Below, piece after piece: positions 491 to 62,702 of a stretch of DNA of 64,000 nucleotides (position 1 is the stretch's first letter; each line of letters begins with the position of its first letter). This stretch comes from a virus. The notes below the pieces were generated by a model. It worked only from the letters and a program-made list of their open reading frames with translations, was not told where the DNA came from and ran no database searches. The stretch is taken from the IMG/VR virus record IMGVR_UViG_3300045988_184219; one strand, 5' to 3'. The position numbers were made by a program, and so were the translations under genes.

Positions 491-634
491 TTTGCTATTT
501 TCCTTTCTCTTTCCAACAACTCAACGATTCCGATAGATTCATTATATAACTTTTCAGCCATGCAATCTGAAAGAAATAGCAGGAACAGTAACTTTTTTGA
601 GTCACCATCTCCAGCCATCCTTTTTTCTTTTGGT

Positions 635-1195
635 CTACCTACTTCCATGTCCAATCGGGTTCATCTCATCGACAACAGCCCCAAGCAACTGAACGGGCGA
701 CGGAACAAATTCCACATACCCATCATCGTCCTCAGAGAGTAACGGAATTGGATTGTACTCCCACCCGTAATGCCACGACCAACGGTAGGCGTGCTCATAT
801 CCACCGAGCGCAATCCACCCACCCCAGTCTTTCTCAAAGGGAGCCTTAAACGGTTCGCCGAGAGAGGTGTATGGGGCAATAATTCCAAACACAGAACTAC
901 AATCCCCAGCGGCGATAAGGTTCGCAATCAGTTCTTCGCGAGAGAAGAAATTGAGAAGTGTTGAGCCAACACCATCCAAATCGCCATTATTGTGGCAGTA
1001 GATAGAATATGTCTTTCCCTTCTTGAGAGTCATAGGACGGCTGTTCTCATACGCCACTTTCAGAGCGTCATCCACCTTCCGACGATCCGAACGCCGACGA
1101 ATCCAGTCATGGATGCGTGCAGGGAGGAGATTTGGATCGAATTGGACTTCAATGTCAAGTGTTGGGATGTACGAAATAAGTGCGCGAGTGCCCAT
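635..1195 (-). CDS. hypothetical protein (186 aa)
   Basis: SD GAAAGGA upstream of ATG at 1195; cassette promoter 1216-1240; no recognisable motifs. Confidence 0.6.
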   Translation of the reverse strand: MGTRALISYIPTLDIEVQFDPNLLPARIHDWIRRRSDRRKVDDALKVAYENSRPMTLKKGKTYSIYCHNNGDLDGVGSTLLNFFSREELIANLIAAGDCSSVFGIIAPYTSLGEPFKAPFEKDWGGWIALGGYEHAYRWSWHYGWEYNPIPLLSEDDDGYVEFVPSPVQLLGAVVDEMNPIGHGSR

Positions 1196-1288
1196 TTACA
1201 GAATCCTTTCTACGAACAAAGCCAATTTTGTTGTATAACTTTTTAGATAAAGAATGGCGGTTTTTATTTCCACCGCCATCCACACATA

Positions 1289-1567
1289 TCAGCACATCTG
1301 CCAGATCCCAGCATCATAACGCTCAATCAGTCCAAACTCCATGTAAGCGTTGAGCGCAAGAAACCCATCACGCGCAACAAGACGACGCAGATAATCCTCA
1401 TCGATCGTCAAACCAAGCTCTTCCGAATGACCGAGAATTGTGTCAATCGCAGCCTCATAGATGTCTTCAGACTCAACGTCACTCGCATAGTCGTGGAAAA
1501 TATACGCGATAGCTTCCTCGCCGAAAACCTTGTGTTCAGAAGGGAAAATCTTAAGCAAGTAAACCAT
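1289..1567 (-). CDS. small acidic protein, paralog family A (92 aa)
   Basis: N-terminus VYLLKIFPSEHKVFGEEAIAYIF matches 19087..19464 and 49239..49514; SD GGAAACGGAGAG before ATG. Confidence 0.65.
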   Translation of the reverse strand: MVYLLKIFPSEHKVFGEEAIAYIFHDYASDVESEDIYEAAIDTILGHSEELGLTIDEDYLRRLVARDGFLALNAYMEFGLIERYDAGIWQMC

Positions 1568-1830
1568 TTTTCACTCTCCGTTTCCTTGTTTAACAACTCT
1601 TTCGATGTATTTATTATATAGCTTTTTACGTAGCGAGACTGAGAAAACCTGCGAGATGGCGGGTTTTCTTTCGTTTTTTGTGGATCGCGACGGGAGAACG
1701 TTTTCCTTTGGTCTATCAACTCCACTCAGTGAGAAAACATAAACTTCATCAAAATTTTTCCTTTGGCGCATAAAAAAGAACCACCTTCCAAGGAAGATGA
1801 TTCTTTTGAGAGAAGACGCTCGCTCAGAAA

Positions 1831-2385
1831 TCAGACCGTAATCTGAACCTCACGCGGGTCAAGGACACGAACACCATAAGAACTCATATCCATCTGAGCC
1901 CCAATTTTGTTCATATGGTCGATTACCTCCTCGGGAACGTAGCGGTACGTCCCACGCCGCATTTCGTTGCGACGCTTCACCTCCTCGATAGGGAGAAAGG
2001 TAAAATCGAGAATAACGACAATAGCACGTCCTTGCGTCTCCTCAAGGACGATACGCTTGATGTCCTTGATTGCGCGACCGTTCATAAACGTCGCGTCAAT
2101 AAAGGTTGCACCTACCGCATTACCGACCTTGCAGGAGAGGCGGGAACGCAAGCACTCATGTGTGAGTTCCCATGCACGCCGTGAGACATTCTGATTAATC
2201 TCGTAAGTAAACTCACCGTCTCTTGTCGTCTCGATAGGAGGTGACAACATAAGGCGAAATGCATCAGGAGAAATCACATAATCATCGCAATTATTGTTGC
2301 GAAGCCATGTGCTCTTTCCAGAACCCGGCAAGCCACGCATGAGGACAACCGTGGCAGAACGGAGAGAAATTGCATGCTTTTTCAT
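1831..2385 (-). CDS. P-loop NTPase, kinase-like (polynucleotide kinase / zeta-toxin-like fold)
   Basis: Walker A GLPGSGKST near N-terminus, ~180 aa single domain; SD GAAAGGATGA before ATG at 2385. Confidence 0.65.
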   Translation of the reverse strand: MKKHAISLRSATVVLMRGLPGSGKSTWLRNNNCDDYVISPDAFRLMLSPPIETTRDGEFTYEINQNVSRRAWELTHECLRSRLSCKVGNAVGATFIDATFMNGRAIKDIKRIVLEETQGRAIVVILDFTFLPIEEVKRRNEMRRGTYRYVPEEVIDHMNKIGAQMDMSSYGVRVLDPREVQITV

Positions 2386-2536
2386 AATAAATCATCCTTT
2401 CTTCGGGCAATACACCTCTTGTATTACCCACCTAAAAACCTACTAAGCCAAAGAGAAAAATTTGGCTTCCAACAATTAAATCATACACCTATTTAACGCG
2501 AAATGGAAATTCTATACACAAAACAAGCAAAAACAA

Positions 2537-2568
2537 AAGGACTACGTTTAACAGTAGTCCTTTTAATA
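2537..2568 (-). terminator. intrinsic terminator hairpin (aaaaggactacg tttaa cagtagtcctttt)
   Basis: perfect 11-bp stem flanked by A/T tracts directly 3' of CDS 2582..2935. Confidence 0.6.
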
Positions 2569-2581
2569 TCAGCCAGTTTTG

Positions 2582-2935
2582 TCACGCCATCCTCACGTTG
2601 TAAACAGGCTTTCCTTCCAGTTCGCGAATCCGCATAATGAGGATGTCCACCAGATCGTCTCTCACATGGACAACGCCGGGCGAGTAGACACCCATACCAG
2701 CGACATCTCCAGTGTAACGCGCATAGCTCCCCTCACTCTCAAGAAGATCGTCATCCATGCGGCGACTGCGACACTCCGCCTGAAAGAGTTTGATGATATG
2801 GTTTGACCTATCTTCAAGGGACGGTTCAACAAACTCAGCATAGTATTTCTGATGTGCAAGGTCACGCTCATACTCAAGGCATTCCTGCTTTGAGTCGAAC
2901 ACAGTTCCGTCAAACGCGGTGTATGTTACCTTCAT
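2582..2935 (-). CDS. paralog family B protein (117 aa)
   Basis: FDGTVFDSKQECLEYERD and VDILIMRIRELEGK motifs shared with 2948..3385 and 3582..3926. Confidence 0.65.
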   Translation of the reverse strand: MKVTYTAFDGTVFDSKQECLEYERDLAHQKYYAEFVEPSLEDRSNHIIKLFQAECRSRRMDDDLLESEGSYARYTGDVAGMGVYSPGVVHVRDDLVDILIMRIRELEGKPVYNVRMA

Positions 2936-6435: not shown

Positions 6436-7155
6436 GGAAAAAAGAAAACGCCCCGCGACAAGCACGGGACGCTTTTTTGTCCTACTCCTCGGATGCAACT
6501 CACGCAGCACCCTTCCTGTTTCACCGACTACTTACGCGGGTTGTCCGCGACCTTCATCTCCACAGGCGCAACTTCCCCCACAGCAGGACGTACGGGGTAC
6601 AAACGGCACTCGCTCCACCTCTAGCCACAGGATGCGAGTTATTATCGGCTTCTCGGGGCTCACGCGGCGGGGTCACAGGACACCCTCACCCACCAGTTTC
6701 GCTCGCCACACCATCCGCTAATTTATTCCACCGTGGTTAGCCGTCATGAGGTCTTTGCGACGTAATATTTTCTATGTATCATCGTAGTTTATGGAGATTG
6801 CGCTCCAAATTAGTCCGTCACATCGGACGTTTGCCCGCCATCATAATTGCTTCTCCTCTCTAGGTCTTTGAAAACTTTGTTCAAAGTAGGGCTGTTTCCC
6901 GCATATCCGAATTATCGCGGAGCCATTATATCACCCGCCGCACCCCTCCATCGGAGTGCGTCTAGCACGCGGGGATTTTAACATTGTTTAGGCGGCACAG
7001 GGGATGCAGGGGTCGATTCCTGCGTCCTTGTGAGGGATTTGCTATCAGGAGGCTTATCGTTCCTCGCGTGTGCGCCGCAACATCCGCAGCGCGGGGCGAG
7101 TGTCGTGTCCTCTCTGTTCGATCCGCCCACCAACTTCTCGTCGGTGTCCCTCTCG
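6436..7155 (-). ncRNA. candidate large (~720 nt) structured ncRNA, copy 1
   Basis: No credible ORF, high GC, own promoter box TTTATTATAGCAGG at 7161-7174, intrinsic terminator (cguccc gugcuugucgc ggggcg + U-tract) at 6440-6480; ~85% identical paralog at 36500..37232. Confidence 0.5.
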
Positions 7156-7374
7156 ATGGTTTTATTATAGCAGGTTCGAACGAGGATGTGGAGAGTTTTT
7201 GTTAAACCAAAGATTTTCTTTTTGAAAAACTTTGCGGGCGGGGCGTTTGATGCGTGGGAGATGTGGAACGCGACGAAAGATTTTTACTTTTGGTTTATCG
7301 AATCCAACTGAACTGACAAAATCAACTCAGATTTCCGACTCTCCCGATTCGAATTTCTGACAAAAACGACTACT

Positions 7375-7402
7375 TGACAAGCAACTATTCCGACTACATA
7401 AT
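7375..7402 (+). promoter_or_regulatory. consensus sigma-70 promoter on + strand (TTGACA-16-CATAAT)
   Basis: TTGACA 7375-7380, CATAAT 7397-7402; related copies at 58868 and 37366. Confidence 0.55.
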
Positions 7403-7674
7403 CCACGCTATTTAAGATGCACCATTCCTTTGGTCTACCAATACAGACGCAACCAAAAACAAACATAAGTTCTAATAAACAAAAACAAAAAAACAACACA
7501 CCTGCAAAAGCAAGTGTGCCGTTTTTCTTCTCACCCAACAAGCCGCCCATCGCTCAGACACTCTGGGTTACGTCCCGCAAGGTATGTTACTACCATGCCG
7601 TCTGCAAAACACCCATTGTAAAAATCTTCTGCGCTTTGATGGATTTTCGCAAACAAGTCGAACATTTTGGTCTG

Positions 7675-7706
7675 GTTTCAATCCGCGCACCCGCGTAAGG
7701 TGCGAT
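7675..7706 (-). repeat. solitary CRISPR-like repeat unit (type I-C-like): minus strand ATCGCACCTTACGCGGGTGCGCGGATTGAAAC
   Basis: Close to the I-C repeat consensus GTCGCGCCCCGCACGGGCGCGTGGATTGAAAC, with hairpin plus GGATTGAAAC handle; no adjacent spacer or cas. Confidence 0.55.
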
Positions 7707-8044
7707 GGCAACACATAGCCAGATTCGCCAGTCCCAAGCACTCACCCATCCACTCAGTGTACAAAATCGACATTATTTTGAGAATCCGTTTCCACTTACG
7801 CATCCTTGCGTCCGTCCTCTCCGAGAGAAATGGTGCCGATTTTATGATCACTTGAGGTTCGCACTCGGACCGTTTACTTTGGCATATCTCACCGTCATTT
7901 GTGTTGCGGTTGTAAATTTTCGGTCGCCCCGCCCAACGACCTTCTTTTAGTCTATCGCGTCACCCAACCAAGCGACGGATTCGACCTTGCTAGACAATCA
8001 ATCGCCTCACCGCACCTTTCCTTTGGTCTATCAACAAAACATCA
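7707..8044 (-). other. conserved ~330-nt leader-like element abutting the CRISPR-like repeat (copy 1 of 3)
   Basis: Begins GGCAACACATAG; long near-identical blocks shared with 22093..22433 and 62271..62602. Confidence 0.5.
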
Positions 8045-8097
8045 ATTAAAAAAAAGTGTAGCACATTTTAAAAATATTTTTCTCCAAAAAACGAAAA

Positions 8098-8312
8098 CGC
8101 CTCGCCATATCTGACAGGGCATTTTCAAGGTGAAGGTGATCCAAAGATGGCTTCAGATGGTTACAGAAAAAGCGAGAAAGGTTCGCAAATGCCGAAGCAT
8201 GTCTGGAAGGGACGCTCTGGATGTTTGTCCGTTCTACTCATATTATACAACAAATCAAACATCTTCGAGACCACCTACGACGAACACACTAAAACGCCGC
8301 TGTCCCTTTAAC
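8098..8312 (-). ncRNA. candidate ncRNA cassette E1 (GGATGGTTACAGA...TTCGAGACCACCTACGAC family)
   Basis: ORF-free; promoter-box variant CAATTAAATTTTATCAC at 8313-8335; hairpin CGCCATATCTGACAGGGC at the 3' end; paralogs E3-E5. Confidence 0.4.
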
Positions 8313-8361
8313 AATTAAATTTTATCACAAAAAACAAATTTTGCAACAGCCATCATCTAAA

Positions 8362-8915
8362 ACGAAAACACCCCGCCATTGCTGACGGGGAGTCTTCGCT
8401 ATATGGAGATAGTCCTTCGGATGGTTACGGTGGGTTAAGTAGAGTCATGCACCCCACGACTAAAGCCGGGGTTTGTCCCAGCCGACACGCTTCCGAGCGA
8501 TGCGAGGTTCAGACGGTTGAGAGGGAAAGACCCTCCCGACCTCCCTTCGGTGGGCGGAACATAAGTGGCATGACAGCGCCCCGTGCAACGCAGGTCATGC
8601 CTACGTTGCCACATTTTTCAACGAGTGCCTTTGCGCTAAATTCTGCGCCTACAACGGTTCTCTCGTTGCTTAAATTGTACCGTTTTTCAAGGAGATTTTC
8701 AACAACTTTTAAGAAAACATCCTCGAAAAGTAAAGTTTGACCGCGCCGATTCCTCCACATGCCTGAAGGAAGGGGCTTCCTCGGCGATTGAGGTGAGTTT
8801 GGTAAGTCATCTTCTTCAAGGAGTGTGCCACTATGACGAAATGGGCAAAACCGACCGAGAAGGACGCTCTGTGTACAAGACACAAGAGACCACCCGCGAC
8901 TCAATGGAAAGCCAC
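8362..8915 (-). ncRNA. candidate ncRNA cassette E2 (contains the 77-nt block shared with 46456..46532)
   Basis: GC-rich; terminator CCCCGCCATTGCTGACGGGG + T-tract at 8365-8395; the overlapping ORF 8509..8943 has no SD. Confidence 0.35.
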
Positions 8916-8997
8916 TGTCCCTCTTATACTTTGAGTATAACATAAACGATTATATTTTTCAACATATTTTTCCTCTTGAACAATTAACAAAAGAAAA

Positions 8998-9192
8998 AGA
9001 AACCACCCTAGCCAAATAGACTAAGGTGGTTTTCGAAGGAGAAAACATTTTTTGGATGGTTGCAGAGCGGAAAGTAACGGTCTGGAAGAGATGCTCTTGA
9101 TGTTTTTTTGATGCAATCATGATCTTTGTTTTTTAACATCTTCGAGACCACCAACGACGTATATGGTTAGCAAAACGCCGTTATCTCTTTAA
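8998..9192 (-). ncRNA. candidate ncRNA cassette E3
   Basis: GGATGGTTGCAGAGCGG ... CTTCGAGACCACCAACGAC; promoter-box variant at 9193-9215; hairpin AAACCACC..GGTGGTTTT at 9000-9035. Confidence 0.4.
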
Positions 9193-9237
9193 CAATTAAA
9201 TTTTATCACAAAAAAGGTTGTTTTACAATACATCAAT

Positions 9238-9470
9238 TAACCAAAACAAAAGCGCCCCACCATTTCTGGCAGGACGCGGACGGAGTAGTCCTTTCGGGAT
9301 GGTTGCAGAGAGGGTTATCAATCCGACAAAAGAAGACCTGTCTGGAGGGAACGCTCTGAGCACCTGCTAGGCACAACACGCAGTCACGCCATGATGCTTT
9401 CGAGACCACCCACGACGAATTATGTCAGTCGCCGCTGTTCCCATGACATATAAAGTATATCAAAAACCAC
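9238..9470 (-). ncRNA. candidate ncRNA cassette E4
   Basis: CGCCCCACCATTTCTGGCAGG ... GGATGGTTGCAGAGAGG ... TTTCGAGACCACCCACGAC; ORF-free. Confidence 0.4.
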
Positions 9471-9598
9471 TTTTGTTTTCAACAATTTCTTGTTCTCGCA
9501 AAAAAACAAAATTATCTCTCACAAAAATCTAAAATCACCTTTCCATCCTTGTCAAGATGCCAAATTTTTCCATAGATAAAATTCAAATAGTTCTCCTC

Positions 9599-10189
9599 TT
9601 AATGCGCTTTTTCCCACGTATGTGTCATACGAACGACACACCTGTGGAAAATATCTGCCAGAAGCTTAAGTAACATCTGTTCAAACTCTTTGTAAAATAA
9701 AAGGTCTACAACAGGAACACATTCCTTTGGTATATCCCAATCAATAGCATCCTTAACATCAGAAAAACCTGTGCTCACAGAAGCAGAAAATTCTATACAA
9801 TGACAAGATGGAGCGTATTTGGAAACAAGCTCTACATCGTCATAAACCATATTAAACAATTTTTTAACTTGTCGATCATTTTTTGATTTAAAAGAAGCCT
9901 TAATAAACATTTGTTCATCATCATCATAACGATATTCTACAGAAATTTTACGGCAAAGAGACTCCCCGAACATATCCGCAAGATACCTTTGTGCCGCTCC
10001 AAATGTTTCTCCCCAACAGTGTCTCTTCCACTCTTTTGTACACCTAAAATCACGCAAAATACGTTCTTTATCGATGTCTGGGAGTTGCTTGAATCTACGA
10101 ATCGGTTCCTCTAGTGGAAACTCTTCGGGGAGTTGAAATTGAGGTGTGTATGGGTGTTTGTGTGTTTGGGATGTGTTTTGTGTTGACAT
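9599..10189 (-). CDS. hypothetical protein (196 aa)
   Basis: Long ORF; promoter with TATAAT at 10275-10295; SD GAAAGGA. Confidence 0.55.
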   Translation of the reverse strand: MSTQNTSQTHKHPYTPQFQLPEEFPLEEPIRRFKQLPDIDKERILRDFRCTKEWKRHCWGETFGAAQRYLADMFGESLCRKISVEYRYDDDEQMFIKASFKSKNDRQVKKLFNMVYDDVELVSKYAPSCHCIEFSASVSTGFSDVKDAIDWDIPKECVPVVDLLFYKEFEQMLLKLLADIFHRCVVRMTHTWEKAH

Positions 10190-10329
10190 GGCGGGAGAAG
10201 TCCTTTCAGAGTTGTTGTTTGTGGTATGGGTAGGGGAGGATGAGCCAAAGGGAAAGGTTGACGAAATTTTATTGTTTCGATTATACTAAAATGGTTCTTA
10301 ATTTGTAACGAACTTTTGGAAATTAAAAA

Positions 10330-10698
10330 AACACCCGCCATTTCTGGTAGGTGTTTTTACATCGCCTAGGGGATTACCCCTTTGATTTCACCGCATAGTC
10401 AGCGATTCGTTTTAACGACTTTTTTTTGTCGGCGGGAGATGTAGCGCAATATTCTCGACCCACCCACCTATTAGGAGGAGGGGAGACAGCAGGATTAGGC
10501 GGTTACGGAGGGTGTGGTAAGTTACTTGCATGCCATAAAGGAGTTCCTGCGCTATGGACGGACGCAGGATTTTGTTCGCCGTCCGAGAGAAATGCTCAAT
10601 CGGGCTATGCCGCTGTGCGCCGCCTAGTTAGCCGCGCTGATGCCACTTGTCCGATGTTTGAGACCGCCTACGACCGTCTGGATGGTCGGTGTTTCTCT
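10330..10698 (-). ncRNA. candidate ncRNA cassette E5
   Basis: Hairpin AAAACACCCGCCATTTCTGGTAGGTGTTTTT at 10330-10365; TTTGAGACCGCCTACGAC core; promoter-box variant TATTTATAACTATAAC at 10700-10720; ORF 10426..10728 judged spurious. Confidence 0.35.
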
Positions 10699-10818
10699 TA
10701 TATTTATAACTATAACAAAAATAAATGATTTTGCAAGAGATTTTTACTTTTTAGATAATATTTTTAAAACAAAAGAAAGAAGGTAAGACCACAAACAGTC
10801 AAACCTTCTTCCTTTTGA

Positions 10819-11166
10819 TCAAGCAGCGCCAACCTCATCTGGGTAAACACCCGTCAGAGATTCAACGAACCGACAGAGGAGATCATTCACAATCTCCGCA
10901 TCGCACGCAAGGTAATTGCGCGAGATGCGGTTGAATGACTCGACAAGCTCACGTCTCGGAACGACCGTTCCAAATGGTTCTCCCATTACAACGATGGCGG
11001 TATCAGGTGTAATCTGATACACGTCACCGAGGATGGAGTCCTCATCAACAACAGAACCGAAAGGAATCAAATTACGGAAAAGAGAATCCGCAACATGATT
11101 TTCGACCCCAATGACATTAGCGTACCTATTAAGTACGCCTTCTTTGGAAAGCCACCAAGTTGACAT
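10819..11166 (-). CDS. paralog family D protein (115 aa; start at MSTWW)
   Basis: Strong SD AAAGGAGGAG 5 nt before ATG at 11166; EPFGTVVP motif shared with 11421..11762. Confidence 0.6.
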   Translation of the reverse strand: MSTWWLSKEGVLNRYANVIGVENHVADSLFRNLIPFGSVVDEDSILGDVYQITPDTAIVVMGEPFGTVVPRRELVESFNRISRNYLACDAEIVNDLLCRFVESLTGVYPDEVGAA

Positions 11167-11420
11167 ATTTACTCCTCCTTTTCGCGTCCATAGAGAACGC
11201 CTACATATCAACTAATTAAATTATATAACAGTTTATAGAGGAATAGAAGGAATTAACGACTGGTTTTCTATTGGATTTTAGAGAGATATGCCAAAGGAAA
11301 AGGTAGCAAGGTAGGTGTTCGACAAGACGAAAGTCTTTGTTAAATAGCTAGAATTAAAAGAAAACAAAAGAAAAAAGAAGGAGAGAACAGATGAGTTCAA
11401 ACCTTCTTTTTTTTTGAAAC

Positions 11421-11762
11421 CTAGGCGACGGAATGCGCGTTGATGAGCGGCTCACCCGTCACCAACTCCACAAAGCGACGGAAGTACGCCTTGTGCGCAT
11501 CGCGGGTCTCATATGTGCAGAGATCCCGCGCAATACGCTCTGCATTGGCGACCACACCAGACTTTGGGACGATCGTGCCGAAAGGGTGTTCCGCAATAAC
11601 GATCGCGACAGACGGAGACGCCTCATAGAGCGCCCCGAACTCGCGACCATTACGGGTCGTGCCGACCGCATCCGCCGCCCAGACCAAATGATCAGCGCGA
11701 CGAATTCCGATGACATGCTTGTAGCCAGCCATCACTTCGGACTTATCCTTCATGTTCCACAT
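11421..11762 (-). CDS. paralog family D protein (113 aa)
   Basis: EHPFGTIVPKSGVV similar to the previous gene; SD GGAGG before ATG. Confidence 0.6.
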   Translation of the reverse strand: MWNMKDKSEVMAGYKHVIGIRRADHLVWAADAVGTTRNGREFGALYEASPSVAIVIAEHPFGTIVPKSGVVANAERIARDLCTYETRDAHKAYFRRFVELVTGEPLINAHSVA

Positions 11763-14568: not shown

Positions 14569-14589
14569 TTTTTTCTTTCCTTTCTGTTC

Positions 14590-14620
14590 AACAACTCTTG
14601 ATGGATTTATTATATAATAA
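14590..14620 (-). promoter_or_regulatory. representative cassette promoter / 5'-UTR block (CAACAACTCTTGATGGATTTATTATATAATAA on +)
   Basis: Block recurs with minor variation upstream of >40 minus-strand genes; contains TATAAT on the minus strand. Confidence 0.6.
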
Positions 14621-21719: not shown

Positions 21720-22076
21720 TTACTTGCGATGGGAATGAGAGATTACCTCATCCAACATAATTACAAGCCAGTCAGGTTTGTTCGTCAGCCTATTGGTCAA
21801 GTGTTCAAGAGAGGCCACTTGTTGCGGGGAGGAAAGTGTGTGATGTTTAACAATCAGAGTTAGCCCACGAACGAGAGCTGTGAGACGTTCGTGGGGAGGC
21901 TTATGCGATTGGACGTTATTGATAAGTGTATCAATTTGCTCGTTGACAAGTTTTTGTTGTTCAACCTGCCAAGTCGCAACCTCTCGTTGAGCGTCAGCAA
22001 GATGACGGCTTTTGGATATGTTTGGGGTTTTCAAAGAGAACACCTTCTTTTTGGCGATGGGTTTCAATCCGCGCAC
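21720..22076 (-). CDS. doubtful ORF (118 aa, no ATG start, no SD), runs into the CRISPR-like repeat
   Basis: Only a GTG start inside the repeat; no cassette. Confidence 0.2.
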   Translation of the reverse strand: MRGLKPIAKKKVFSLKTPNISKSRHLADAQREVATWQVEQQKLVNEQIDTLINNVQSHKPPHERLTALVRGLTLIVKHHTLSSPQQVASLEHLTNRLTNKPDWLVIMLDEVISHSHRK

Positions 22077-22092
22077 CTACAATAGGTACGAT
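22061..22092 (-). repeat. solitary CRISPR-like repeat unit (type I-C-like): minus strand ATCGTACCTATTGTAGGTGCGCGGATTGAAAC
   Basis: Same GCGGATTGAAAC handle and a compensated hairpin as at 7675 and 62075-62270. Confidence 0.5.
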
Positions 22093-22433
22093 GGCAACAC
22101 ATAGAAAGATTCGCCCGTTCCGAGTGCCTTCCACTCCACACAGATCACAAAATCGACGTATTTTAGGGAATCTATTCCCACTATCGCATCCTTGCGACCC
22201 TTCTCGATGAGAGGAAACGAGTCGATTTTATGTTCACTTGAGGTTCACACTCAGACGTTTTCTTTGGCATATCCAACGATTATTTGTGTCGCGGTTGTAA
22301 ATTTTCGGTCGTCCGCGCAAAACGACCTTCTTTTGACCAAATTCACGTCACCCAACCAAACGCCGGGTTCGACCTTACCACACAATCAATCCTCTCACCA
22401 CACCTTTCCTTTAGGCTATCAACAAGACTTCAT
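22093..22433 (-). other. conserved ~330-nt leader-like element (copy 2 of 3)
   Basis: GGCAACACATAG ... CGCATCCTTGCGACC ... GCGGTTGTAAATTTTCGGTCG ... shared with 7707..8044 and 62271..62602. Confidence 0.5.
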
Positions 22434-22529
22434 TTACAGAAAGTGTAACACATATTAAAAATTATTGTTCTGCAAAAAGAAAAACACCTGTCAAGCAAGT
22501 GTTTTTCAAGGAAGAGATTTGAGAAAGAA

Positions 22530-23099: not shown

Positions 23100-23520
23100 A
23101 CCCACTCATTATTATAAAGGTGAGCTATCTTTCCGTTTCATTAATCAAGCTGTTTTATATCAACCAACCATCCTTTTCGTCTTTCCAAGTTCATCATACT
23201 GCTCCACCCAATTCTTCAAATGAGCATCCGCAACAGAGAGAGACACGGACGGATAGCGACGAATACAGTTGCCATTCTTATAATATCGCACTTGAACTCC
23301 CCACGACTCTCATCGCGGGATTCTCGGGTCGTTCGCAACTTAGACACCTTCTCACCGCAAATGAGACGTTGATCCAGTGCCCAGAGGTCGCGAAAAATTA
23401 CCGAGCTATCCCCGTCGTCCCAACGGTTCGGTAAGGCGAAAAGTTCGTTGATAAGCCAAAGGATTAGGCGGATTTGTCGCGAAACTTTTCATCGAGTTCT
23501 ACGAGGAGCCGAAGCCCTTC
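23100..23520 (-). ncRNA. candidate TnpB guide RNA (omega/reRNA) region: 3' end of tnpB plus downstream right end
   Basis: ~400 nt ORF-poor segment downstream of tnpB where IS605-family elements encode their guide RNA; not verified structurally. Confidence 0.3.
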
Positions 23521-24621
23521 GCAGAGAATATTCTGTGCCGCGTTGAGGTCGCGGTCGTGATGATGCCCACACTTCGGGCAGATCCACTCACGCACGCTGA
23601 GTTCCTTGACGGCGGGGTTTTTGAAGCCGCAATTTCCGCAGGTCTGCGAGGAGGCGTAGAACCTGTCCACAGTGAGGAGAACGCGTCCGCGCCAGAGAGA
23701 CTTGTATTCGAGCTGTCGTCTAAGTTCACCCCACGAGGAATCCGCGATGTGACGGGCGAGACAGTGATTCTTTATCATCCCGCTCACGTTGAGGTCTTCA
23801 ATGAAGATAACCCCGTACTTTTTTGTGACAAAGTTCGTTAATTTATGAAGGTAGTCCTCTCGTTGTGCCGCAATTTTTGCGTTCAGCCGTGCCACCTTGA
23901 CCCGAGCCTTCTCGCGACGCGCACTCGACTTTGATTTTCGGTCGAACGAGCGTTGCAGAAATTTCAGGCGATTTAAGGAGGTATTGAGCGGCTTGAGCGC
24001 GTCAAACTGCGTGCCATCGGAGAGGATTGCGAGGTCTTTGATGCCAAGGTCGATGCCGACAGGATCTTCATTGTGCTCCAACACAGGCGCAGGAACGTCG
24101 GTTGCGCAGATCGAAATGTAGTACCGCCCGTCTGGTTCGATACGCACGGTCGCACTGAGGATTCTGCCCTCTGGAATGAGGTTCTTCCCTCCGCGAATCC
24201 GCACCCTGCCGAGCTTCGGAAGCTTGATATGCGTCCCCTCAAACGCGATGTTGTTATTCGTGAAATTCGTCCGATAACTCTGATAGTTGTCGCGTTTGGA
24301 CTTGAAGCGTGGATAACCAAACTTCCTCTTGCGCGACGAGTTGACCGTTCCAAAGAAATTATCATAGGCTTTATCGAGATCGCGAAGGGCGTTCTGTAAC
24401 GCACATTTATCGGGTTCGAGGAGGAACGGGAGTTCACGTTTGAGGTCGGTCAGCCGTTTGCTACACGCGTTGTAACCGAGCGTTTTCTTCGTTTCCGCGT
24501 ATGTGTCGATTCGGAGTCGAAGAAAATAATTGTAAATAAATCGTTTACACCCGAACGTCTTTTTAATCAAGTCACGTTGCTTTGCGTTCGGGTAGGCACG
24601 GTACACGTACCCCTTTTCCAT
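23464..24621 (-). CDS. tnpB: IS200/IS605-family TnpB (RNA-guided RuvC nuclease, OrfB)
   Basis: RuvC-I GIDLGIKD, RuvC-II IFIEDLN, zinc finger CGNCG...CPKCG, RuvC-III RDLNAAQNI; 385 aa; no tnpA. Confidence 0.85.
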   Translation of the reverse strand: MEKGYVYRAYPNAKQRDLIKKTFGCKRFIYNYFLRLRIDTYAETKKTLGYNACSKRLTDLKRELPFLLEPDKCALQNALRDLDKAYDNFFGTVNSSRKRKFGYPRFKSKRDNYQSYRTNFTNNNIAFEGTHIKLPKLGRVRIRGGKNLIPEGRILSATVRIEPDGRYYISICATDVPAPVLEHNEDPVGIDLGIKDLAILSDGTQFDALKPLNTSLNRLKFLQRSFDRKSKSSARREKARVKVARLNAKIAAQREDYLHKLTNFVTKKYGVIFIEDLNVSGMIKNHCLARHIADSSWGELRRQLEYKSLWRGRVLLTVDRFYASSQTCGNCGFKNPAVKELSVREWICPKCGHHHDRDLNAAQNILCEGLRLLVELDEKFRDKSA

Positions 24622-36499: not shown

Positions 36500-37232
36500 T
36501 AAAAAATGAAAACGCCCTGCGACAAGCACAGGACGTTCTCTCGAACACTTTCCACACAATAAGTCACGGGATCATCCCCCTCGGGATTCAACGGCAACTC
36601 ATTGTACTGCAACCACCGATGTTCACACGGCTGGTATCATCATCCTCGCGCCCCACAACGAGGAAACCACAAGATTTTGGGGCAATATTTGACGGCACTC
36701 GCACCACCTCTAGCCACGCGTGATTTGCAGTTACGAGCGACTTGTCGGGACGTATCTTCGCGGCGGGGTCAACGGGTGTTATGCCCTCTCCCACCATCCA
36801 GTCCACCATCCACTCCTCTTGTGCGTGGTTAGCCGTCATGAGGTCTTTGCGACGTAATGTATGTTATCAGCCGTAGTTTAGGGAGATTGCACTCCGAATC
36901 AGTCTATCACATCGGACGTTTACCCGCCATCATGGTTGCTTCTCCTCTCTAGGTCTTTCAAGCTCTTTTTTCAAAGTAGGGCTGTTTCCCGCTTATCCGA
37001 ATTCTCGCGAAGCCCTTATATCACCCGCCGCACCCCACCATCGGAGTACGTCTAGCACGCGGGGATTTTAACATTGTTTAGGCGGTCGAGGTTGCTCGCG
37101 GAGGTCGATTTCCACGTCCTCGGGAGAGACTCTCAACAGGTGTCTAGCGTTCCTCATGTGCGCCGCTTTAGCTGCGCGGAGTTGCGTCAACCTGCCTGAG
37201 CCGCCTACCAACTTTTCGTCGGTGTCCCTCTC
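36500..37232 (-). ncRNA. candidate large (~730 nt) structured ncRNA, copy 2
   Basis: Paralog of 6436..7155: shared blocks GGTTAGCCGTCATGAGGTCTTTGCGACGTAAT and GTCTAGCACGCGGGGATTTTAACATTGTTTAGGCGG; promoter box 37238-37250; terminator 36510-36545. Confidence 0.5.
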
Positions 37233-37365
37233 GATGGTTTTATTATAGCAGGTTCAAACGAGAATGTGGAGAATTTTTGTTGAGTCGAAGGTTTTTCTTT
37301 TTCGAGAGAGGTGGGAGGTGTCGGGAACCAGTTTCTTTGGCTTATCCTATCCGACTTAACCGACT

Positions 37366-46189: not shown

Positions 46190-46274
46190 ACCTTTCTTTT
46201 AAAACCGACTAAACTCCATTGATATATTTATTATATAACTTTTGCATACGAAGATAAGAAAAACGAGCAGACTC

Positions 46275-46690
46275 AGCGCTTTCTTTACGCTGTTTTTGCT
46301 CGTTTTCCTTTGGCTTACAACGCCGATTTTGTAACTCCCAAGTCCATTATGGCAAGGGAGATAGCACCTCGCGCTTCCGAATTGTCGCGAGAGCCGATTA
46401 TTTCCACCCGCCCGCACCTTTCGGCACGATCTAGCGCGCGGGGGATTTACTTAGTCATGCACCCCACGACTAAAGCTAGGGGCTTGTCCCAGCCGACACG
46501 CTTCCGAGCGATGCGAGGTTCAGACGGTTGAGAAGGAGAACGGGGCTCAATTTGCGAGTTGGTTTAGAAAGGAGGCTTTTCCCCGCACACAGTAAAAGCG
46601 GGAATTCATGGAAACCGAGGCTGTGCCCCGCCGAGCCGACATGCCGACGGAAGCCACCCCTAGCTGACAGCCGCATTCTTCGCAGCTACT
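46275..46690 (-). ncRNA. candidate mosaic ncRNA cassette (shares 77-nt block with 8447-8523, GCGCGGGGGATTT module and CCUCCUUUCUAAACC tail)
   Basis: ORF-free GC-rich; promoter-box variant CACATTATAGCGCAAC ~46715; hairpin + T-tract terminator 46270-46305. Confidence 0.4.
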
Positions 46691-46849
46691 TGAGCACCAT
46701 CGTCCGTGCCATCAGCTATGTTCACATTATAGCGCAACAGGAAGGTGCGTGGGGAGAAAAAGAGAAAACGGTAGAAAAGTTTTTTGATTTTCAACAAAAG
46801 CCCCTTCCCAATAACGGAAGTCTTTTCCTTTGGCATATTTTACAAAAGA

Positions 46850-49514: not shown

Positions 49515-49659
49515 TTTTCTCAACCTTTCCTTTTCTGCGTTAATCAACTCACTTGATATGTTTATTATATAACACTTTCGCCCATAATAAAGAGAAAATC
49601 GGCACATATCGTAAGTTTTTTCCTTTAACAATACGTGCCAACCTAGACCGTTTCCTTGG

Positions 49660-58652: not shown

Positions 58653-58867
58653 AATTTTTCTTCCTTTCTTTTCAACAACTCTTGATGTATTTATTATATA
58701 ACTTTTCTTAGAAGGATGAGCGTATTTTCAGTAGGGAAAGTTTTTTTTGAAAAGAAATGTTGTCTGAGATGTGTCCTTTAGTCTATTCGCTCAAACCTTT
58801 CCGACAAAAGCGACTAATCCGACTCAGATTTCCGACTCATCCGACTTTCTCGACAAAACCGACTACT

Positions 58868-62074: not shown

Positions 62075-62270
62075 GTTTCAATCCGCGCACTCCATACAGA
62101 GTGCGATTTTGCGCTCAATGGCTTTATTGTCTCTCAGGTTTCAATCCGCGCACCCACGAAGGGTGCGATGGGCATAATTTCAACCCACACTACCTATACG
62201 GGTAGTGTTCTCTTTACACTGAGCACAATAGAATCGGGTTTCAATCCGCACGCCCTATACGGGGCGTGAT
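62075..62270 (-). CRISPR. mini CRISPR-like array, type I-C-like repeats: R1 62075-62107, spacer 62108-62137 (30 nt), R2 62138-62169, degenerate repeat ~62178-62207, spacer ~62208-62237, R3 62238-62270 (leader-proximal)
   Basis: Minus-strand repeats ATCGCACTCTGTATGGAGTGCGCGGATTGAAAC / ATCGCACCCTTCGTGGGTGCGCGGATTGAAAC / ATCACGCCCCGTATAGGGCGTGCGGATTGAAAC; constant GCGGATTGAAAC handle, hairpin stems kept by compensatory changes; no cas genes in the window. Confidence 0.55.
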
Positions 62271-62602
62271 GGCAACACATAGCAAAATTAACCAAATCCG
62301 CGCACTCACTACTCCACTCACCCATCAAAATCGACGTAATTTAGGAAATCCATTCCCGATCACGCATCCTTGCGTCGATCCTCTCCGAGAGAAACGTGTC
62401 GATTTTATGTTCGTTTAGGATTCGCACTAAAACTGTCCTTTGGCTAATCCAACCGTCATTTTTGTGTTGCGGTTGCAAGATTTCGGTCGCCACCGCCAAA
62501 CGACCTTCTTTTGGTCAAATTCACGTCGCCCAACCAAGCGACGGGTTCGACCTTGCTAGACAATCAACGGTCTCACCGAACCTTTCCCATTGGTCTATTA
62601 AC
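62271..62602 (-). other. conserved ~330-nt leader-like element (copy 3 of 3) adjacent to the mini-array
   Basis: GGCAACACATAG ... CGCATCCTTGCGTCGATCCTCTCCGAGAGAAA ... GCGGTTGCAAGATTTCGGTCGCC ... shared with copies at 7707 and 22093. Confidence 0.5.
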
Positions 62603-62702
62603 AAAACATCATTTACAGAGAGTGTAGCACAGATTCAAAAGAGTTTCCTGCAAAAAAGAAAAACCAACACATGATTTTTAAAATATGTGTTGGTTCTCGA
62701 CA

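Follow-up and report, generated by a model that had tools for sequence, protein, structure and literature searches.

What does a stretch of viral DNA encode when it carries repeated GC-rich segments and, at first sight, no gene? Positions 8098-10698 of a 64,000-nt stretch of IMG/VR virus record IMGVR_UViG_3300045988_184219 (the window, hereafter, at its full length) raise this question. The original prediction, made from the sequence alone, had described them as a 2.6-kb island without open reading frames (ORFs), holding at least five independently transcribed, paralogous elements, E1 to E5, which it took for a modular, recombining family of small RNAs beside a CRISPR (clustered regularly interspaced short palindromic repeats)-like repeat. 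Our analysis partly confirms this observation, which was largely right but read on the wrong strand, and partly supports its interpretation as a new small-RNA family. We are highly confident that E1-E5 form a real family of structured non-coding RNAs on the minus strand, and the family is previously undescribed. Overall, the explanation that we prefer holds that the RNAs act in trans through a common core and RNA-specific tails; we give it a probability of roughly 40%, a figure that reflects the mechanism rather than the anatomy.

Five minus-strand RNA genes with a common pseudoknotted core

Positions 7000-11500 were read on both strands and scanned there for promoters and terminators. This region holds 16 promoter-like sites against 6.4 in shuffles, and five sites of the type TTGnAA-16/17-TAnAnT lie on the minus strand, four of them with a TG extension. 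Terminator hairpins followed by U-tracts lie on the same strand at about 10353-10325, 9277-9242, 9032-8990, 8390-8359 and 8120-8086. The consensus scan therefore predicts five neighboring minus-strand RNA genes, each with its own sigma-70-like promoter and intrinsic terminator, in keeping with the independent transcription proposed earlier; such a layout would yield discrete small transcripts, as expected of trans-acting small RNAs. Since all of these promoters and terminators are on the minus strand, we reject a plus-strand reading: the small hairpin (CGCCATTTCTGGCAGG) formerly placed at the start of each element is the intrinsic terminator at its 3' end, with a different hairpin in E3, and the supposed promoter box CAATTAAATTTTATCAC, found at E1 and E3 only, reads on the opposite strand as an extended -10 element (TGTGATAAAAT) together with the start region. 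A covariance model built from the five copies matched every one of them and revealed no further E element in the window. The genes and their parts are as follows, with promoters taken from the consensus scan and L-numbers denoting related loci that are described below.

8319-8346, minus strand: E1 promoter, TTGCAA-16-TAAAAT, conserved in L045 and L050
8086-8312, minus strand: E1 RNA gene, about 225 nt; core 8149-8312 (model match, 141.6 bits); pseudoknot strands 8270-8275 and 8156-8161; tail 8121-8155; terminator hairpin 8099-8120 plus U-tract
8934-8962, minus strand: E2 promoter, TTGAAA-17-TATACT
8359-8927, minus strand: E2 RNA gene, about 569 nt; model match on the 5' half (8776-8927, 67.7 bits), aligned by hand with the insert trimmed; pseudoknot strands 8889-8894 and 8420-8425; helix P4 broken by a 350-nt insertion; terminator 8371-8390
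9200-9228, minus strand: E3 promoter, TTGTAA-17-TAAAAT
8990-9193, minus strand: E3 RNA gene, about 204 nt, the minimal version with an 8-nt P4 loop; model match 9048-9193 (135.1 bits); pseudoknot strands 9147-9152 and 9055-9060; terminator 9000-9032
9454-9482, minus strand: E4 promoter, TTGAAA-17-TATACT
9242-9447, minus strand: E4 RNA gene, about 206 nt; model match 9291-9447 (125.5 bits); pseudoknot strands 9405-9410 and 9298-9303; tail 9282-9295 (GAAAGGACTACTCC); terminator 9252-9277
10709-10736, minus strand: E5 promoter, TTGCAA-16-TATAGT, conserved in relatives
10325-10701, minus strand: E5 RNA gene, about 377 nt; core 10491-10701 (model match, 85.0 bits); pseudoknot strands 10663-10668 (GGCGGT) and 10498-10503 (ACCGCC); terminator 10332-10353 plus U-tract
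10354-10490, minus strand: extra conserved 3' domain of E5, from the alignment

The five paralogous GC-rich elements are thus present at about the positions first given to them, with E1 (AGATGGTTACAGAAA) departing from the consensus that had been quoted for the family. The RNAs measure about 200-225 nt, apart from E5, which reaches 377 nt because of its extra 3' domain, and E2, which reaches 569 nt because a mobile fragment landed in a tolerant stem. The motif GGYGGTCTC occurs six times in the window against 0.57 expected, a count reached in none of 100 shuffles, and five of the six occurrences lie inside the island, all on the minus strand. Elsewhere in the window, at least 18 copies of a near-identical minus-strand promoter motif, GTTATATAATAAA..., stand ahead of small genes, often directly after a terminator (for example at 1575-1622, 14571-14618, 49526-49573 and 58655-58702); the promoters of the E RNAs differ from it in having a canonical -35 and a TG-extended -10 element.

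The architecture of the core was obtained with RNAalifold on E1, E3 and E4 and by hand alignment of all five copies, in which the long inserts of E2 and E5 were trimmed. This align-and-fold analysis, proposed along with the original prediction, revealed a common pseudoknotted architecture with compensatory pairs. A 7-bp helix, P1 (AAGGGAC/GUCCCUU), closes a three-way junction with P2 and P3. P2 is a hairpin (GCGGCG/CGUCGU), the junction strand between P2 and P3 reads (A/G)GGUGGU, and P3 has an invariant 3-bp base (CUC/GAG) below a variable distal helix, followed by a single nucleotide and the 3' strand of P1. Next comes P4 (CAGA-c-NN/NN-c-UCUG) with a conserved C·C mismatch and a tip that is variable or accepts insertions, ranging from the 8-nt loop of E3 to hundreds of nucleotides in E2. 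After P4, N-A-A, with both adenines invariant, leads into ACCAUC(C), and the ACCAUC pairs back with the GGUGGU of the P2-P3 junction to form the pseudoknot.

Base-pair covariation supports this fold at two levels. When the five paralogs are aligned with MAFFT, pairing covers 95.3% of cells and both sides change in 17 of the 35 pairs; with partners slid by 1-3 columns as a control, pairing falls to 39-50%. In 33 distinct sequences from 13 loci, it reaches 94.6% of cells, and compensatory change is seen in 22 of 35 pairs; as these sequences are kin, the counts do not represent independent events. Three pairs covary in the pseudoknot helix, which is 98.3% paired, and none of 500 shuffles attains the observed values. 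The P4 strands covary as CAGA/UCUG, CGGU/ACCG and CGGA/UCCG, with UGUA/UACA in relatives, and the pseudoknot as GGUGGU/ACCAUC versus GGCGGU/ACCGCC; the C·C mismatch is retained in 25 of 26 and 23 of 26 sequences.

The family has no counterpart in Rfam: the 4227 models gave no match at the gathering threshold anywhere in the window, and at E<=10 over 6500-11500 we obtained 11 sub-threshold matches, all at chance level and none credible. A search for tRNA (transfer RNA) and tmRNA (transfer-messenger RNA) found none. Several local resemblances, namely a K-turn in the P3 internal loop, a tRNA-like 'CCA' after P1, a T-box-like UGGU:ACCA pairing and mimicry of the 16S 3' end, were dropped by eye, as none is conserved across the five types.

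Could the elements instead be protein-coding genes, or decaying repeats without function? Mechanical ORFs do overlap the E genes, such as a 144-aa frame over E2 (8509-8943, minus strand) that the gene caller of one assembly accepts. That frame depends on the E2 insertion and is absent from orthologues, which lack the insert, and we found no conserved reading frame in the E RNAs: the longest stop-free stretches switch both strand and frame among orthologues. The compensatory helix substitutions argue for selection on RNA structure, so that we consider this explanation hardly credible. The view of E1-E5 as a new small-RNA family accordingly gains from the missing Rfam match, the strong covariation and the shifting frames.

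The E2 insertion accounts for most of the modularity noted earlier. The 77-nt block that E2 was said to share with a distant cassette is real, with 95% identity over 85 nt to 46453-46537, and it belongs to a 350-nt insert within P4.

8443-8792, minus strand: tnpB-less mini-insertion sequence (mini-IS) in P4 of E2, with a left-end-like 5' part and a right-end/omegaRNA-type module including the 77-nt block (blastn)

By blastn, the 3' part of the insert matches L048 11642-11483, from the stop codon of a tnpB gene of 415 aa onwards, and its first 55 nt match the region upstream of tnpB at 45024-44969 in the window and at 13035-12987 in L048. The 3' end of tnpB is where TnpB guide RNAs (omegaRNAs) are encoded. 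With matches to both the tnpB-upstream region and the tnpB 3' end, the insert is therefore a tnpB-less mini-IS made of a left end and a right end with its omegaRNA. The E2 orthologues in L045, L050 and L056 are of ordinary size, with a core of about 165 nt and no insert. Hence the one clear module in the family is explained by insertion, without recombination among the E RNAs. It also shows that a tnpB-less insertion sequence with a guide-RNA module can enter another structured RNA while the conserved core survives.

Shared non-coding blocks also occur outside the island. The promoter-to-terminator non-coding unit at 46260-46740 (minus strand) that holds the omegaRNA-type 77-nt module (46453-46537) contains a second module (AAATCCCC..GGTGCGGGCGGGTG..AATTCGGA) common to an element at 6760-7200. 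The latter is a GC-rich non-coding element with at least two copies, at 6760-7200 and 36965-37251 (minus strand) and in L031 at 1-230, with 94% identity over 121 nt, and a 19-nt block (GGCTAACTAGGCGGCGCA) is common to the L031 copy and the P3 arm of E5. There are further short shared blocks as well.

One lineage of large oral elements

The search for relatives by covariance model, also suggested at the outset, had a mixed outcome. No E homologues were found by blastn in phage and plasmid records, by two pattern scans and the model in IMG/VR, or by pattern and model in GTDB genomes; the pattern matches were due to chance. A metagenome contig, L031, carries five copies, and looking up the embedded orphan protein and a neighboring 115-aa protein led to further contigs with E RNAs. 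The model-positive loci listed are L031 (identical to L057), L041-L045, L047, L048, L050, L052, L056, L068, L070 and L071; L035, at 22.5 bits, was rejected as a member for want of P1 and the pseudoknot. The relatives are contigs of 220-390 kb from human oral metagenomes, one record being labelled human oral metagenome, PRJEB6997, and the E family was found in this one lineage of 220-390 kb human oral elements only, giant and for the most part uncharacterized mobile elements of bacteria of the human mouth. We rejected an assignment to the giant oral element 'Inocle', whose GC content is 24-32% against about 44% here.

Within this lineage the array has a fixed part and a changeable part. An E5-type copy sits at the same position in 12 of 12 model-positive related loci, always 3' of the 115-aa gene, and zero to four more copies follow the orphan gene, so that copy number runs from 1 to 5 across otherwise syntenic loci; L048 and L052 carry the E5 type only. 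Two relatives share a flanking 130-aa protein at 99% identity and the embedded protein at 52%, which marks the island as a hot spot. Between E5 and the orphan gene, relatives carry a restriction-modification pair, which consists of a methylase/type IIG-like enzyme and a specificity subunit. The restriction and modification cargo found here or just upstream of E5 varies (L041 4998-7932, L045 4059-6226, L031 4603-7771) and includes a type IIG-like methylase with a specificity subunit and an EcoRI-like methylase with a GmrSD/HNH nuclease; the window has none.

The orphan gene itself shows that the island is not free of ORFs, as had been stated.

9599-10189, minus strand: orf226, a protein gene of 196 aa here, between E4 and E5; not an RNA gene

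Its homologues in relatives are 225-230 aa long and 51-88% identical. An in-frame TAA at 9599-9601 shortens the window copy; the frame runs on to 9512, and the 28 codons past the TAA still encode the conserved C-terminus (EENYL..ILDFCER) of the homologues, so the TAA is either a recent nonsense mutation or read through. The protein has no match in Pfam, PHROG or PADLOC, and a profile search of 1.84 billion proteins returned its own lineage only. Its predicted structure is poor and uninformative (predicted local distance difference test, pLDDT, 40), with no recognizable nuclease fold. In L031, three tandem paralogous orphan genes of 234, 202 and 193 aa (563-2734, minus strand) follow the RNA cluster, and many of the orphan ORFs of about 190-235 aa in the window may belong to this family.

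On its other side the island borders a mini-CRISPR remnant, and the adjacency pointed out in the original prediction holds.

7675-8045, minus strand: mini-CRISPR remnant with a conserved leader of about 330 nt and a single repeat (7675-7712); not a member of the E family

The leader segment ending in the repeat has three copies in the window, and in L041 and L048 the same segment precedes 4-7 repeats with a 66-nt period, which identifies it as the leader of mini-CRISPR arrays. The lone repeat is fused to 7540-7674 (minus strand), the 3' remnant of a gene of about 193 aa, the intact form of which L031 carries at 563-1144 (minus strand); the array was joined to the tail of this gene by a deletion. 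An early idea, that an element ending in a CRISPR-like hairpin was a transposon with an omegaRNA, was ruled out by the 4-7 regular repeats of the relatives. Several such arrays occur per element (window 7675-8045, 22060-22442 and 62076-62620, minus strand; L048 9092-9532; L041 1551-1789), each with its own leader promoter and 1-7 repeats (…ATCGCACC-loop-GGTGCGCGGATTGAAAC) at a 66-nt period, and the repeat hairpin has compensatory changes. In L047, at 6776-7115, a CRISPR leader is fused straight after the pseudoknot strand of an E4-type RNA (..AACCATCC|AAAGGAAAGGGTCGG..), replacing its tail and terminator. Within the loci we saw TnpB/Cas12f-like genes only, and no cas genes. The E RNAs have no sequence relation to the neighboring repeat: for all five, shuffles did as well as the real RNA in local alignment to the 38-nt repeat and in duplex energy with it, and with neither complementarity nor similarity a role as tracrRNA (trans-activating CRISPR RNA) or as a repeat mimic (an RNA anti-CRISPR) was ruled out.

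More broadly, the window is a run of small, mostly orphan minus-strand genes, each with its own promoter and terminator, and it also encodes a C5 methylase, a SNF2 helicase, an SPFH protein and two TnpB-like proteins.

23464-24621, minus strand: TnpB-like gene, 385 aa
43477-44823, minus strand: TnpB-like gene, 448 aa, matching Cas12f models in PADLOC (E 3e-16); with just 67 nt to the next ORF, a guide RNA of its own is not obvious

How the E RNAs may act

We propose that the E RNAs are abundant, stable RNAs that would act in trans. The shared pseudoknotted core would be the handle by which a common partner binds, and this partner would most likely be a protein encoded by the element or its host. 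The paralog-specific tail would carry specificity, either by mimicking a ribosome-binding region, as E4 may do for the orphan gene, or by base pairing. This combination of common handle and specific tail is a tentative proposal, closer to a leading guess than to a conclusion. Because the island lies between a restriction-modification module and mini-CRISPR arrays and turns over in copy number, we think that the RNAs may act in regulation or conflict for the giant element; the hypervariable setting with its 1-5 copies suggests such a role on circumstantial grounds. With TnpB elements, cas-less mini-CRISPR arrays and restriction-modification genes beside them in a stretch that evolves fast, they are candidates for RNA-based regulation or counter-defence.

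The tails are the parts most open to such a reading. Between core and terminator each RNA has 20-35 nt that are paralog-specific and conserved among orthologues; a Shine-Dalgarno (SD)-like GAAAGG and a CU-rich motif, UCUCC, occur in these segments, frequently within a small hairpin. In E4, 13 of 14 tail positions agree with the region where translation of the orphan gene starts (local-alignment p ~0.006), a region that all relatives conserve; the window has no zero-mismatch site besides these two.

Several observations weigh against this proposal. The protein partner of the core is a postulate, and the promoters and terminators of the E genes are matches to consensus sequences. The similarity of the E4 tail becomes modest when five or six comparisons are corrected for, and duplication could have left it as a relic. 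The predicted duplex sites of the tails show no enrichment in translation start regions of window genes (0-13% of the top 15 sites per tail, against a background of 5.5%), and a search of the window and the fetched loci found neither protospacer-like nor full-length matches to the tails. L054, a relative at greater distance, carries the orphan gene and lacks an E RNA. As for the fold, the family belongs to one narrow lineage, so that many compensatory cells trace to few events, and alignments built with the covariance model, including that of the 33 sequences, lean towards the model structure.

Two alternatives would give the tails or the orphan protein a different part. The E RNAs might be guide RNAs of the omegaRNA or single guide RNA (sgRNA) type, with a scaffold and a variable 3' guide that a TnpB/Cas12f-like protein of the element or another effector would use in trans for DNA targeting or repression, as nuclease-dead relatives of TnpB do. 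The order of scaffold, pseudoknot 3' strand, 20-35-nt tail and terminator fits, the element has several TnpB-like genes (the two listed above and more in related loci), and the 13-of-14 match of the E4 tail is to the non-template strand of the orphan gene start. Yet E genes are never found at a tnpB 3' end; the sole tnpB checked, in L048, is followed by its own unrelated omegaRNA-type module of the 77-nt block family, several E loci have no tnpB within 8 kb, the tails share GAAAGG and UCUCC and so are not free-form, and no matching target was found in the window or the fetched loci, all of which makes this alternative unlikely. Slightly less likely still is that the E RNAs are inhibitors or antitoxins that neutralize the orphan protein by binding it, in the manner of a type III toxin-antitoxin system. 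It is favored by E5 and its terminator standing before the orphan gene, as they do in the window and L045, by an E4-type RNA directly after the same gene, by the restriction of both protein and RNAs to one lineage, by the rapid evolution of the protein (52% against 99% for its neighbor) and by the premature stop in the window copy. Against it, the E RNAs lack the short tandem repeats of ToxI-type RNAs, a two-gene restriction-modification module intervenes between E5 and the protein gene in most relatives, L054 has the protein without the RNA, L048 and L052 have the E5 type only, and the poor model of the protein shows no recognizable nuclease fold.

Two further alternatives start from the core. 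Orphaned cis-regulatory leaders, riboswitch-like in joining an aptamer to an SD-like sequence and a terminator, could explain why the pseudoknot 3' strand runs directly into GAAAGG and then the terminator, whose 3' half (GGUGGGG/GGCGGGG) resembles the pseudoknot 5' strand and permits alternative pairing. However, each terminator is followed by another promoter or RNA gene and not by a reading frame, no start codon keeps a regular spacing from the SD-like sequence, it would be unusual for five tandem copies to have nothing to regulate, and no riboswitch family matches, so we regard such leaders as quite improbable. The fold, for its part, recalls the ribozyme of hepatitis delta virus (HDV), whose nested arrangement has been described as known only from HDV-type ribozymes (PMC4836649), and the E RNAs might be self-cleaving ribozymes of this kind that trim their own 5' leader. 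P1 (5-11/183-189) crosses the pseudoknot helix (41-47/307-313), with P3 inside and P4 between and all helices 94-100% paired, and the strands follow the order of HDV-like ribozymes (RF00094 and relatives), P1-P2-P3-P3'-P1'-P4-P4'-P2', with the J1/2 insert after P1 and J4/2 before P2'. The dimensions fit too: P1 of 7 bp, P3 of 3 bp, two adenines before the last strand, which is the 3' strand of P2, and variability in P4 and J1/2, the two places where HDV-like ribozymes mainly vary (PMC4836649). What is missing is the active site. Where J4/2 begins and the catalytic C would stand, 21 of the 33 sequences have U (E1 among them), 7 have C (E3 and E4 among them) and 5 have A, and the base varies even among near-identical orthologues; in place of a short L3 with P1.1, the E RNAs have an internal loop and a helix, which is a continuous hairpin in E2-type copies, and the candidate P1.1 pair 51-165 (GC 14, AU 5, GU 4, UU 3) fits an extension of P3 equally well; the first pair of P1 is not a conserved G·U (GC 16, AU 8, GU 3, other 6); and HDV-family models give no match even at E<=10. 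With catalytic C, L3/P1.1, G·U and model match all failing, the likeness is one of topology only, and self-cleavage is very unlikely.

Beyond the proposal of a common handle and specific tails, we consider a more speculative extension, improbable as it stands, in which the E RNAs and orf226 would form a new RNA-protein conflict module of giant oral extrachromosomal elements, with a non-catalytic HDV-type double-pseudoknot fold as the protein handle. The tails would imitate the translation start region of orf226 itself, so that the RNAs could titrate or redirect the protein, whether for autoregulation, for antitoxin-like neutralization or as a decoy for host defence, in an array that would grow and shrink beside restriction-modification genes and mini-CRISPR arrays. 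If true, it would be the first natural non-ribozyme use of an HDV-type fold.

Likeness to known RNAs

An HDV strand topology without the catalytic residue raises the question of what else this architecture can do. Very few structured RNA classes are known from the giant 'dark-matter' mobile elements in the human microbiome, and the E family adds a well-supported one; its compact core of about 150 nt is easily synthesized, which makes both structure and function directly testable.

Among RNAs of similar build, the omegaRNAs of TnpB (also called reRNAs, right-end RNAs) and the sgRNA scaffolds of Cas12f and Cas12k are likewise structured scaffolds of 100-250 nt in which the 3' strand of a pseudoknot adjoins a variable 3' segment, and TnpB genes are present in the same element. 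The E RNAs differ in having their own promoters and terminators, in lying away from transposon ends and in tails that share motifs, and the omegaRNA-type module of the element belongs to a different sequence family. The multicopy sibling small RNAs LhrC1-5 of Listeria and csRNA1-5 of Streptococcus, both Gram-positive, are 90-150 nt long and fold into simple stem-loops. They resemble the E RNAs as tandem paralogous small-RNA genes with individual promoters and terminators and with CU-rich motifs in exposed loops or linkers, whereas the E RNAs have a large conserved pseudoknotted core and no detectable enrichment of ribosome-binding-site targets. Type III toxin-antitoxin RNAs (ToxI) consist of 36-45 nt tandem repeats and partner an RNase of the ToxN/AbiQ type; as with the E RNAs, a small protein gene follows the pseudoknot RNA gene and its terminator, and the setting is mobile and related to conflict, but the E RNAs have neither such repeats nor a recognizable RNase of this type, and their linkage is interrupted in most relatives. 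Finally, the large or ornate phage and plasmid RNAs ROOL, GOLLD, HEARO and raiA are, like the E RNAs, GC-rich structured RNAs borne by mobile elements and sometimes present in several copies; the E RNAs, which none of their covariance models matches, are smaller and built on another architecture.

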